This document shows, piece by piece, positions 27,006-57,600 of a stretch of 64,000 bases of DNA. The translations under genes and the position numbers were made by a program. The stretch is from Haplodiscus bocki (lineage: Eukaryota). The DNA lies in the NCBI GenBank assembly GCA_965655095.1, contig OZ296658.1:61690001-61754000 (forward strand), read 5' to 3'. The notes beneath the pieces are model-generated. The model did not search any database. It saw nothing but the letters and a program-made list of their open reading frames with translations, and had not been told where the DNA came from. The stretch's first letter is position 1, and each line of letters opens with the position of its first letter.

Positions 27006-27630
27006 ACTTTTTCACTCAAATTCGACAAAAGCATCAAAAAAATCGAGCTTTTTTTTCTGAAAGCTTTTCTGTAGAATGTTCCTCTGGTCATCTGAAATGC
27101 AGATTTGAAAACGTTGCTTGATGTTTCTTTCTGAAGTCCACAAAATTTTTGCTCAAATCCTAGAAAAAGTAAAAATTTCCTTCCAGAAAAAAGGTCTCCG
27201 ACTTCTTCCTCCGGACATATAAACAGCATGTTAAACGAACTTGGCGAAAATTTTGCGGAGAGTCTAAACTTCTTTCACTCATGTCCGAAGAATTTATTGA
27301 TAACCATTTTTTTTAAAGTCAATTGCTTTGAAAGGATTGTTTGAACACATAGAACTGACATTTCTCAACCCTCCTGATAAATTTTCGCACAAAATTCATG
27401 AATTTTGCTCAAACTCCAAGATTACGTATGAAAACAAAATATCTCGAAAAATATTTCTGACTCGAAAATTCGCTTGGACTCGTGAATAGCAGTTTTGACA
27501 ACCTTGTCAAGTTTTTTTACGTCCAATGTCCAAACATTTCCAGCTAAAGTTATCTATTTTCTTGGTTATTTTAATTCTTCTCAAACGATTTGTTCTTGGG
27601 CAATATGTTTCCTTAAACAAAAACAATGCA
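27006..27630 (-). repeat. Inverted block of the same satellite (monomers 2-6) abutting the left TIR
   Basis: The reverse complement reads tgcattgtttttgtttaaggaaacatattg...gttgtcaaaactgctattcacgagtcc...gtcagttctatgtgttcaaacaatc...ttcggacatgagtgaaagaag...gaatttgagtgaaaaagt, collinear with the + strand satellite unit. Confidence 0.92.
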
Positions 27631-28395
27631 AATAATATAATATATTGAGGGTATGAGACTAAACCTCGCCTCGATCACTTTACTCTCATCTCCGGCAATT
27701 TACCTGCTCGTTCGTTCGCCCTCCTCACTCACCGGCTCGCTCGCTTACAACTCACATCGCTTCTCGCCTCGAGTTTTGTTCAACCCTACGGGCCACACCT
27801 TTTGGTCGCTCGGCTCGTGAGATGCTCGGCTAATGTCTCGCACAAAAAATAATATCTACGTATAGCATACCTTCATTTGGTGATGTATACATAAACGAAT
27901 AGTTTCTCATTTACGTAAACATAGAATTAACAAAAAGATTGCATTTGCACTTTTACATTGTAAGCGAGACTGAAAAACTCACCACTACCCAGTATGTCAA
28001 CATAACACAAATTATACATGCTGGCTTTGTTGACAAAACATTCCATGCGAAATTAAACAAGTTTTTCTCTTCTTATTTCGTCTCCTGTGCCTTAGTGGAT
28101 ATACCATTGGCGATGTTAAGGCATGGCCGAAGTTTCTGGGGTCCACTTCTTCTAATGTCTCCCAGTCTTTGTTATATCTTACATGCCATAGAGGATAATC
28201 TTAAACGCACAGTTCTTGAAATATTGATCCCTGCTGTAGAAATTTACACTGGAACGGACTCCCGATGGTCTTTGAGTTTACTGTGGGTATGTTAATGCAC
28301 ATGCCTATGGGTTTTGTATTTAATTCATACAGTTGGAGGTTGTTGAACTTTATTGAAATCACTAGCCTATACACAAATTAGTCTACTTGAAAGTT
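27631..28395 (+). repeat. Left terminal inverted repeat (~765 bp)
   Basis: aataatataatatattgagggtatgagactaaacctcg...acttgaaagtt is the reverse complement of 53871-54602 (roughly 75-85% identity by manual comparison, one ~35-bp indel near 28236-28270). Mirrored ORFs 27939..28295(+) and 53990..54313(-) are homologous. Confidence 0.92.
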
Positions 28396-28583
28396 GGAGT
28401 TTATTGCATCGGTGGAAAGCCGTTAAACTGTGGAATTCATTCCCAAGCTTTTCTTTCAAAAACATACTTTCATAACATCTTTTTTCACCAAACGGAGAAA
28501 GTCCATGGAATACTATTGTGACAATATTCGTAAAATTTTATCGTAAACGAGATTTTGCAATTGTTGAAAACTACATCGTTTAA

Positions 28584-53871: not shown

Positions 53872-54602
53872 ACTTTCAAGTTAGGCCTATTAGTGTATGA
53901 GCTGGCGATTTCAATGAAGTTCAACAACCTCCAACCATAGGGAAAAAACAAAACCAATAGGCATGTGCATTGACATACGTATAATAATCTCAAAACAGCA
54001 GGGACCATCTTTTTAAGAACTGTGCATTTGGTGATTCTCCTCCTATGGCATGTAAGATATAACAAAGAGTGGGAGACGTATGAAGAAGTGAACCCCAAAC
54101 ACTTCGGCCATGCCTTAATTTCGTCCCTGCTATTTCCACTGAGCCACAGCAGATGGAATAAGAAAAGAAAAACTTGTTTAAATATACATGGAATGTTTTG
54201 TCAACAAAGGTAGCATGTACACTTTGTGTAATGTCGACATAGTTGGTAGTAGTGAGTTTTTCAGTCTCGCTTACAATGTAAAAGTGCACGGGCAATCTTT
54301 TTGTTAATTCCATATTTACGTAAATGTGAAATTATACGTTTATGTATGCATCACCAAAAAAAGTATGCTTTACGTAGATAAGTTTTATTATGGGAGGCGT
54401 TAGTCGAGCAACCCACTAGCAGAGCGGCTAAAAAGTGAGGCCCGTAGGGTCGAACAATAATATAGGCGAGAGGCGTTGTGAGCTGTAAACGAAGGAGCCG
54501 GTGAGAGAACAAGTCGAACGAGAGGGCGGGTATATTGTCGGAGATGAGAGTAAAGTGAGCGAAGCGAGGTTTAGTCTCATATCCTCAACATACTATATTA
54601 TT
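53871..54602 (-). repeat. Right terminal inverted repeat (~732 bp)
   Basis: aactttcaagttaggcc...cgaggtttagtctcatatcctcaacatactatattatt is the reverse complement of the left TIR. Confidence 0.92.
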
Positions 54603-57600
54603 TGCAGTGTATATGTACAAGCAAACCTATTGACTAGGAGCATTTCATTTGAGAAGAATTAAAGTTAACAACAATTAGAGAACTTTGATCAAAATTCAAG
54701 AACGTTTGGCAAAAAACTACCAGTAGGGATGACAAATGTCAGTTATACGTGTTCGAACAATCTTTTCGAAGCATTTTGACTTTTTTTGAAAAAATGGTTT
54801 TCAGTAAGTTTCTTCGGACATGAGAGAATCTTTGGACCTTTCATGAAAAGTTTTCGCCAAGTTCGGTTAAAATACAATTTATATGTCCAGAGGAATTTTC
54901 CGGACAACACTTTCTCGAAGAAATTTTTTTTCGGCTTTGAGTGAATATTTTGTGGACTTCGGAAAAAAATTTGCAGCACCTTCCTCACCTATGCATTTCA
55001 CATGCCCAGAGGAATATTCTGAAGAAAACTTTTCTGAAAGGAAAAAAACTAGAATTTTTTGATGTTTTTGTCGAAGCTGAGTGAAAAGTTTCGGAATTCT
55101 GACGAAAAAGGTTCAACATGTGGTCAATTTGCATCCATCGTGTCCAGACTAAAATCTTGAAGAAAAACTCAAAACCTGAATTTCCATCAAGGTTTTCCCA
55201 TATCGAGCATAAGCGTTTCCGACTAGTGGCAGAAATATTCGGCAGAGTCATTAAAATTGCCTTTTACGAGTTCAGAGAAACTTATGACGATGAAAAACTA
55301 TTTGGAAAAAGTTTAATTTCACACACGTTTTTGGACATTGAACAAATAGTTTATGGATTTCGGGGGAAATTTTTCGGCCAAGTTTACAAAAATCAAATCT
55401 ACGTGACGACAGGATTGTTTTGAAAAAGTTTTTCCTTGAAGCAAACAGATGTTCATTTTACAGTTTTTTTCGGGACTACGCCAAAAACGTTCGAAACATT
55501 GAAGCAAAAGTTTTCGGTTGCGGCAGCGTTGTCATGTCTGCGCTCTGAAAGTCCAGACGATGTTTTGAAGAAGAATTTTCTTTGGGAAAACTCCTAACTC
55601 CATTCTAAATTGCTGACGTCAATAAAATTAATTACAGACATCTTGTGAAAATTTATTGGGAGGGTTAACAAAACTGAATTCTACATGGCCAAAGAATGCA
55701 TTTTGGGGAGATTTTTATTAAGAGAAAAAACAAAATTTCGAAACCATGTCAGACTTCTTCGAGAATTGTTCGTTCATTGGGCGAGAAAACGCCGGAAAGT
55801 TTGAGAAAACAGGAAAGTTTGGAAAGTTCTACTTGTCCAGGGCAACACATTGTTGAGAAAACTTTCGCTTGGAAAAAAACTATATTTTTTCCGCTAAATT
55901 CAGACTTTTAGCGAAAATCTTACTGATATTTGGTACAAAGTAATCGGCAGAGTTGTCAAAAGTGTACCATAAATTCCCTGTTAAATGTTTTTCGTGAGAA
56001 AATTTTTTTGACAAAATGCCTAAAGTTCATTTTATATTTTGGATTTATAGCAAAAAACCTCCCACTTATGGCGAAAAAACTTGTCAGGGTTGTCAAAACT
56101 GCTATTTAAGAGTCCAGACGAAGGTTCGAGAAAAATGTCTTTTTTTGGGAAAAGACATACATTAGTACGTGTTCTTGGACTTTGAATAAAATTCATGGAT
56201 ATTTGGCTAAAAACTATGGCAGCGATGGCAAATGTCATTTCTACGTGTTCAGACGATCAATTTGAAGAATTTTGACTTTTTTTGAAAAAATAAATAGGAA
56301 TACTTGAATTTTTCGATATTTCTTTCAAATTTGAGTCGAAACCTTTCGGAATTTTGACAGAAAACTTTCAACATGTGGTCAAATCTGCATCCTACGTGTC
56401 CGGAAGAAAATCTTGAAGGAAAAACATTTGACTTTACGTTTTCATGAAGGATTTCCTAATTCGAGCAAAAAAGTTTCCTACTATTGGCAAAAAAATTCGG
56501 CAGAGTGGTCAATGTTGCAATTTACGAGTCCAGAAGATTATTCGGGAAGGAAAAGTAGTTGGAAAACTTTAATTTCATACACGTCTTCGGAGAAGGAACG
56601 AAAGTTTCAAGGATTTTCCTAGGAAAACTTATTGCCCGGGTTGACAAAACTCAATTTTACCTGCCCAGAGGATTGTAATAAAGAAAAAGATCTTTTTTGA
56701 AAGAAACAGGTGTTTTTTTTCAAAAATTTTTAGGGAGTAACTCAAAAACATTCGCAATTTTGACGAAAAAAGTTTTGACAGCGTTGCCAATACTGCCCTC
56801 TATGAGTCCATACGACATTTTGAAGAAGAAATTTTTTCTTGCAAACTTTCAATTTCAGTTTAATTCTTGGACTCTGATGAAAAACAATCAAAGACACACG
56901 GAAAAATTTGATTGGCAGCGTTTTCAAAAGTGACTTCTACGAGTCCAGAGAATCAATTTTAGGAAATTTTTTTTTCGAAAAGAAAATTTCATAATCCATT
57001 TCAAACTTCGAACGAAAAAAGTTTGTACTTTTGGCTTTTGGTGGCAAAATTTCGGCAGGTTTGTTGGAAATTCATTGTACCTGTCCATTGCAATATCTTG
57101 CTTGAAAACAGTTCTTTTCCGGAAATTATAATTTTTCAAATACTTTCAGACTTCCAGCGAAAAACTTTCCAATTTTTGGCGCATAAATTTCGGCAGGTTG
57201 AAAACAGTGTTCTAAAAGTTCCCTGACGAAAGTTTTTAGGAAAAAAACAATTTTCGAAAAAAAAAATAACTTTATAAATGAGTTCACACCTAGAGTGATA
57301 AAGTCTCCCACTTATAGCAAAAACTAAATCGGCAGGGCTATGAAAACTGCTTTTTACGAGTCCCCACGAAATTTTGAGTAAGAAGTGTTTTGAAAGAATT
57401 ATAGTTTAATACGAAGCTTGGACGTTGATCAGATTCATAGACTTCTCGCGAAAACTTATCGGCAGAATTGACAAAAGTCATTTCTGCTCGTTCAGACAAT
57501 CATTTTGAAGAACTTTGATTTTTTTGAAAAAAAAATGTTTTCAATAAATTTCTTCGGAAAAGAGTGAAAAAAGCACGGACCCTTGACAAAATTTCTTCAT

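Follow-up and report, generated by a model that had tools for sequence, protein, structure and literature searches.

The window analysed here, a stretch of 64,000 nucleotides from the 1.5 Gb genome of Haplodiscus bocki (G000:C11:61690001-61754000), contains an old Polinton that lies within a tandem satellite array and is flanked on its two sides by the same satellite sequence in mirror orientation. Other loci are given below by contig C-number and position, and fetched pieces by L-number. We consider it probable that a 625-bp inverted copy of the right satellite flank replaced the left flank after insertion, by host break repair primed from the terminal inverted repeats (TIRs) of the element; for this particular copy the right flank is the presumed template, and a date after insertion the presumed timing. 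The mirror is best read as a real feature and as one old case of a rearrangement that recurs at Polinton ends, with no virus-satellite partnership behind it. The features of the window that bear on this are:

1-27005, forward strand: forward tandem array, unit about 1.29 kb, beginning about 80 kb upstream of the window.
26995-27015, no strand: distal join of the forward array to the inverted arm, with an imperfect microhomology of 4 to about 9 nt as judged from sister monomers.
27006-27630, reverse strand: inverted satellite arm of 625 bp, mirror of the right flank.
27631-54602: decayed Polinton, bounded by TIRs, both ends adjoining satellite.
27631-28395, reverse strand: left TIR with a 5'-AATAAT terminus, located by BLAST.
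53871-54602, forward strand: right TIR, located by BLAST.
54603-55090 (about 488 bp), forward strand: right flank and likely template of the arm, with a private deletion of roughly 140 bp.
55091-60325, forward strand: forward array continued, with old, divergent edge monomers.

As the original prediction, made from the window alone, had claimed, both Polinton ends join the same satellite nucleotide in mirror orientation, and the junctions read as it quoted them. The left flank begins tgcattg (reverse complement) and the right flank tgcagtg, where intact monomers read agaac and then, from the junction base, tgcagtg. The first 30 bases of the two flanks match at 23/30 positions, while unrelated ends average 8.6; in control cross-pairings of unrelated ends 1/2756 scored at least 24, and this one is attributed to a known inverted duplicate, L082/L083, that had been entered under two keys. 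An extension of the inverted repeat by about 625 bp past the TIR was confirmed on the left, but the right counterpart measures only about 488 bp, because the deletion of about 140 bp is private to the right monomer. The two arms differ at 90/475 positions (18.9%), which is similar to the 16.3% between the TIRs, and the arm at 27006-27630 would have replaced about 600 bp, or more in whole units, of the expected left flank. The 6-bp target-site duplication (TSD) that was predicted to be lacking is indeed absent from the element ends, as is any TSD of 5-8 bp; because related Polintons in the genome carry a TSD, its absence here is read as a secondary loss. The variant said to be shared by both flanks, the 16-mer tttgagaagaattaaa, has 27570 and 54648 as its sole positions within the 214 kb searched around the window; it is mostly common to monomers 24470 and 26315, however, and one position alone is therefore exclusive to both arms. 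In a tree the arm clusters with the right flank and these two monomers (bootstrap 100).

Mirrored flanks were found at other Polintons as well. Paired ends were classed as TSD pairs at no more than one mismatch and as mirrors when at least 24 of the first 30 flank bases matched; the window, at 23/30, was put in the mirror class by its 475-column alignment. Of the young AATAAT-ended subfamily, the first 100 of 546 matches contained 34 pairs, 28 of which were taken in list order; together with one further pair they gave 25 TSD pairs, 1 mirror and 3 with neither (29 pairs). From the AGTAGT-ended family (1011 matches, of which the first 100 were used) 20 pairs were taken from the top of the list; 18 were TSD pairs and 2 mirrors. 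All 25 matchable pairs near the subfamilies of the window, a sample that was not blind, comprised 10 TSD pairs, 9 TIR-bounded mirrors (window included), 2 element-centred palindromes and 4 with neither. When the mirror beside the window is included, the total is 75 pairs with 13 TIR-bounded mirrors and 53 pairs with a 6-bp TSD, three pairs having been classed by eye and the TSD call of L164/165 resting on an uncertain terminus. Mirrors are commoner in the older subfamilies, with 8/24 when the window is left out versus 3/49 young-family pairs (Fisher p=0.004). The 13 mirrors belong to two Polinton families; their arm lengths are 29, 186, 411, 625, ~700, 830, 839, 854, 967, 1527, 1578, 2531 and 6183 bp, and no flank is common to them, two in the C11 array excepted. 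The tabulation of TIR flanks that the original prediction proposed thus shows unrelated flanks with a TSD in most copies, as expected if the window were a one-off inverted duplication, but with 12 other mirrors it is not one. Among the three models put forward, the copying of one end together with its flank onto the other is the one supported, and it is general across the genome.

Some pairings were set aside. Contig C141 and C8:68.99 were dropped from the count of TIR-bounded mirrors and kept in the denominator of 25: C8:68.99 is mirrored over at least 10 kb inside the element, and every sampled part of C141, a contig of 106 kb (L078, L079, L099-L101, L258-L261), forms one 99.4-99.9% palindrome centred inside a Polinton. 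The pairing L082/L083, of two polymerase-side ends 145 kb apart, was dropped because the real partner of L083, L162, carries a TSD, and the alternative pairing L163/L075 was also dropped from the counts. The mirror copy at C8:51.66 is atypical, being 32 kb long, almost without Polinton genes and furnished with an older inner inverted repeat. At C7:28.89 Mb (L082) and C8:65.60 Mb (L011) a Polinton end is duplicated together with its flank in inverted orientation, 145 kb and 3.4 Mb from the respective matches; both could have come from the same copying acting between loci.

The origin of a mirrored arm can be seen in a second Polinton of the same array, at C11:61614367-61632151 (L171-L173), about 75 kb upstream of the window. 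It is young and AGTAGT-ended, belongs to a different family, has capsid, PolB and integrase matches and occupies another position of the satellite unit than the window element. Its layout is as in the window: forward array, inverted arm of 839 bp, element, forward array. The arm differs from the adjacent right monomer at 3/837 positions, whereas the five monomers beyond it show 19-35 differences and the two upstream monomers 122-139; the contrast between 3/837 and 19-35 identifies the arm as a copy of the flank at the opposite end, which runs through the junction in the manner of an expanding inverted repeat. The far join of this copy has almost no microhomology.

Loss of the replaced flank, with a repair join at the far end, was found at C1:39.1 and C1:68.84 and is presumed for the window. 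At C1:39.1 the 186-bp arm, which had no third match among 40 scored, is joined on the right side to a neighbouring Polinton that lacks its terminus, at a point about 490 bp into the TIR of that element and over an imperfect microhomology of about 13 nt. The arms at C1:68.84 are about 0.4% divergent over 3.75 kb and then 3-10% over 2.4 kb, and their outer limit is an ACTACT terminus accompanied by a perfect 6-bp TSD; our reading is that synthesis ran from the inner TIR until the inverted repeat of an older element was reached. At this locus (C1:68.83-68.86 Mb; L246, L247, L264, L265) the Polinton is nested in an older ACTACT-ended element; with the mirror arms of 6.2 kb the composite has inverted ends of about 7.4 kb, and the outer element gave no Pfam match.

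The course of events that we propose would start from a normal insertion with a 6-bp TSD, as seen in 53/75 pairs and assumed for the window copy, followed by a break, or the stalling of a fork, at one end or immediately beyond it. The exposed 3' TIR strand could then anneal to the opposite TIR, either within its own chromatid or on the sister, and be extended past the terminus into the host flank, as mirrors that begin at the first flank base suggest; the copying of the adjacent flank is documented for the second C11 copy. Either microhomology or an older inverted repeat would then serve to join the new strand to the second broken end, at the cost of the original flank with its TSD, which were lost at C1:39.1 and C1:68.84 and presumably in the window. 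Later rounds may extend or re-homogenise the arms, a possibility raised by arms with two-step divergence. A sister-chromatid crossover between the TIRs followed by a second break would give the same product and is counted within the proposed repair. For the genome at large, the balance tips slightly towards long TIRs acting as standing repair primers that convert many resident copies (about 6% of young-family and about one third of surviving old pairs) into palindrome makers, deleting one host flank, duplicating the other in inverted orientation and working outwards in repeated rounds; part of the mirrors may form during integration, the polymerase-side flank being preferentially kept, and surveys that rely on TSDs would overlook mirrored copies or draw their limits wrongly.

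Several decayed copies have arms that are nearly identical. C11:28.49 combines 37 stops per 2620 residues with arms that differ at 3/854 positions, C12:19.99 has 41 per 2685 with 10/830, and C3:77.6 has 42 per 2801 with arms that differ at 26 positions within the first 400 bp and at 2 over the following 1161; C5:98.48 has a similar two-step divergence. Provided that such arms are not assembly artefacts, decayed copies with near-identical arms place these events long after insertion, and under the same proviso some of them may have occurred in more than one round. In a separate set of TSD-type copies (L064/65, L126/127, L144/145 and L054/55) the outer TIRs are near-identical and the inner TIRs 10-25% divergent, which undermines dating by whole-TIR identity.

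A number of observations weigh against repair after insertion, or against its reach. The tree and rare-state analyses do not single out the right flank in the window as the template of the arm: both trees place the arm closer to 24470/26315 than to the right flank, and rare states shared by arm and right flank number 4, by arm and 26315 7 and by right flank and 26315 6. Divergence is flat along the window TIR, so that the event in the window cannot be dated later than insertion; since the arm is similarly divergent, the event must be old and is possibly as old as the insertion itself. Those young mirrors that carry few stops or none (C1:39.1, C1:8.89, C1:68.84 and the second C11 copy) are explained just as well by formation at insertion. 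An abrupt change from identical outer TIR to divergent inner TIR is seen in TSD-type copies too (L064/65, L126/127 and L144/145), so that it is not evidence of late conversion and was rejected as proof of it. The excess of mirrors in the older subfamilies comes from a sample that was not blind, and end repair itself favours the detection of both ends. The C141 palindrome continues to the contig ends, so the assembly may contain fold-back artefacts, and arms of near-100% identity are known from the assembly alone.

The same TIR-primed copying could instead take place during insertion, if one end is joined by the integrase, the free end primes on the joined TIR and copies the flank, and host repair ligates the product (one-ended integration or a panhandle intermediate). 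We regard this as possible, though on the whole unlikely. It agrees with the 0-0.4% arm divergence of young mirrors with few or no stops, with the similar divergence of arm and TIR in the window and with the retention of the PolB-side flank, the other being replaced, in 3/3 mirrors that can be judged (window, C11:61.61 Mb and C1:39.1 Mb), a sample too small for a test of such a bias. It also has a counterpart in one-ended retroviral integration, which leaves the host sequence at the second end deleted, duplicated or inverted (PMC5041404). It is unable to explain near-identical arms on decayed copies, arms with two-step divergence or the excess in older subfamilies, and may account for some copies, that of the window included.

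An assembly or library fold-back artefact is very improbable for the mirrors as a class. C141 is a whole-contig palindrome, and none of the left junctions of the second C11 copy (L171:2500-6000) was bridged by the short-read contig pieces listed; but the window arms differ by 19% and a large indel and other arms by 1-7%, beyond any fold-back read, and four public read runs, which come from two samples of a single study and may be the source material, contain 0.77-0.94 of 231 words sampled from 26300-28600.

We give scarcely any credence to a satellite-targeting family, two opposite insertions of which at the same nucleotide later recombined. Two Polintons do lie in one array, and a sister relationship of the arm to the right flank is not clear-cut, but the second C11 element is of a different family and at a different unit position, and the twelve other mirrors have different flanks. 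The satellite, with a unit of about 1.29-1.34 kb, appears to be merely the landing place of the window copy on the best reading of the searches, the counts of which are lower bounds because only the best candidates were scored. The best 40 of 78 satellite matches all fall at one locus, C11:61.61-61.72 Mb; with a query spanning TIR and satellite, 2/40 best scored matches cover both parts, and these are the window's own ends. Satellite was found beside 0/28 copies outside the window (30 were fetched of the best 40 TIR matches), and 0/142 other Polinton-end flanks start in satellite at the junction, one of them having a weak satellite match 844-983 bp from the terminus. No other copy was thus found at the same satellite nucleotide, most copies having unrelated flanks and TSDs, and site-specific targeting was rejected; the satellite-targeting and the extended-TIR model would both have led one to expect the reverse. 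The TIR divergence of about 20% that recombination between copies was predicted to explain fits age (142 stops in 5238 residues), and recombination between two copies is not needed. Within the array, window positions 5119-22400 hold about 14 closely similar satellite units, while a divergence of 25-30% is found in units close to the Polinton or at the margins of the array.

Nor is it at all plausible that the captured flank has become an extended TIR that moves with the element. L011 and L003, 3.4 Mb apart, have flank and interior in common, and C1:68.84 has a TSD outside its arms; the common L011 flank extends past the arm end, however, like a segmental duplication, and the outer TSD at C1:68.84 belongs to the older, 3-10% divergent outer repeat. 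A perfect TSD outside the arms was found in 0/10 mirror pairs tested (nine TIR-bounded ones and C8:68.99), the best having one mismatch in 70 registers, and searches for TIR-plus-arm units at other loci gave no third match among 40 scored in 2/2 cases. With no other TIR-satellite junction among the best 40 matches, the predicted dispersal of the satellite as an extended TIR was rejected. Insertion at the centre of a pre-existing host palindrome can be discounted to much the same degree: two arms (L076/77 and L084/85) start with a self-complementary hexamer, also readable as a TSD, but the other mirrors are without one, neighbouring sequence was lost at C1:39.1, and the L084/85 palindrome is centred inside the element.

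The identity of the window element is given by its TIRs and by the remains of its genes. The TIRs are about 730-765 bp, within the 100-1500 bp of Polintons/Mavericks, with 79.4% BLAST identity and 119/728 substitutions (16.3%). The internal features are:

28763-49288, forward strand: internal tandem duplication with a period of about 10.2 kb (28763-39074 versus 39070-49288, 94-98% identical).
32110-33294 (copy 1) and 42330-43514 (copy 2), forward strand: broken major capsid (double jelly roll) gene, located by tblastn.
37642-38360 (copy 1) and 48076-48575 (partial copy 2), forward strand: broken rve integrase gene, located by tblastn.
50050-53145, forward strand: broken PolB gene, located by tblastn with the open reading frame (ORF) of a relative.

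The element contains no long reading frame, and its decay amounts to 142 stops per 5238 aligned residues: it is an old Polinton. Frames of a relative at C1:39.1 matched the profiles of PolB (PF03175, 2e-16), rve integrase (PF00665, 6e-10) and the double-jelly-roll major capsid protein (PF21738, 1e-12), and in tblastn these frames found the broken genes of the window with E values of 5e-105 (PolB, 50050-53145), 2e-44 and 2e-78, respectively. The window integrase fragment itself scored 0.009 against PF00665, below the cut-off; a Pfam search of six window ORFs gave zero matches, and packaging ATPase and protease had no Pfam match among the window fragments tried, no dedicated queries being used. 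The family ends in AATAAT/ATTATT (27631, 54602) and not in AGTAGT or AGAGAG; an AGTAGT-ended Polinton family with 1011 motif matches is also present in the genome. The 10.2-kb internal duplication is much younger than the TIR divergence. Internal tandem duplications of 10.2, 3.1 and 2.0 kb occur in the decayed copies of the window (28763-49288), C12:16.25 Mb and C6:11.53 Mb, and at C6:81.36-81.38 Mb three right ends lie at a spacing of 10.15 kb. Other dispersed repeats with short ORFs occupy 60441-63636 of the window and are found also beside L009 and L028; two of their ORFs were searched in Pfam with no match.

If this holds generally, the host DNA beside Polintons is still remodelled by them long after gene decay, through inverted duplications of 30 bp to more than 6 kb and deletion of the flank on the opposite side. 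The two families have 764 and 1011 motif matches, and tens of loci in the genome might then be affected. Published surveys would tend to pass over such copies: one retained 628/2,863 by end motif and perfect TSD (PMC8097293), and another tested the 6 bases outside each TIR (PMC10748475). Where an inverted-repeat finder is followed by a TSD test at the repeat edge, mirror copies are likely to be given inflated TIRs and to fail the test, and the clock of TIR identity would be reset for them. The virus-satellite partnership proposed in the original prediction is done away with, as the best satellite matches all lie at one locus and 0/142 other end flanks start in satellite.

No precedent for mirror flanks at Polintons was found in a literature search, the reach of which excluded most subscription papers and supplements. 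In adenovirus panhandle end repair and in poxvirus terminal mirror duplications one terminus is rebuilt from the other via an inverted repeat; these cases act on free viral genomes, whereas at the Polintons it is chromosomal DNA of the host that is copied. In alternative transposition an element end is joined to a fresh target site, so an inverted copy would not start at the old junction base, where the mirrors described here begin. A duplication of host sequence through aberrant transposition is nevertheless a likeness to the alternative transposition of Ac/Ds (10.1101/2020.01.07.897926), and Pack-TIR gap filling likewise ties TIR elements to host-sequence duplication through repair, but with the captured DNA inside the element (PMC8277862). 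Polintons/Mavericks are described with a gene set, long TIRs and a 5-8-bp TSD (PMC10748475, PMC8097293), with which the genes and TIRs of the window and the standard 6-bp TSD of most paired copies in the genome agree; the window copy and 12 others differ in having no TSD and a mirrored flank, and the window termini, AATAAT/ATTATT, differ from the (AG)3 or (AGT)2 end motifs of vertebrate Mavericks (PMC8097293). One-ended retroviral integration resembles the mirrors in having one normal junction and another that is repaired by the host with deletion, duplication or inversion (PMC5041404), but long terminal repeats are direct repeats and give no nucleotide-exact mirror, and several events here came after insertion. 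A further likeness is to the expansion of the chloroplast inverted repeat by double-strand-break repair (Goulding et al. 1996, as given in PMC8592052), in which a break at one repeat is followed by invasion of the other and synthesis through the junction, single-copy DNA is pulled into the inverted repeat, and rounds are repeated. The difference is that here the repeat is the TIR of a mobile element in an animal nuclear genome, and that growth is outward into host DNA and occurs at many loci.

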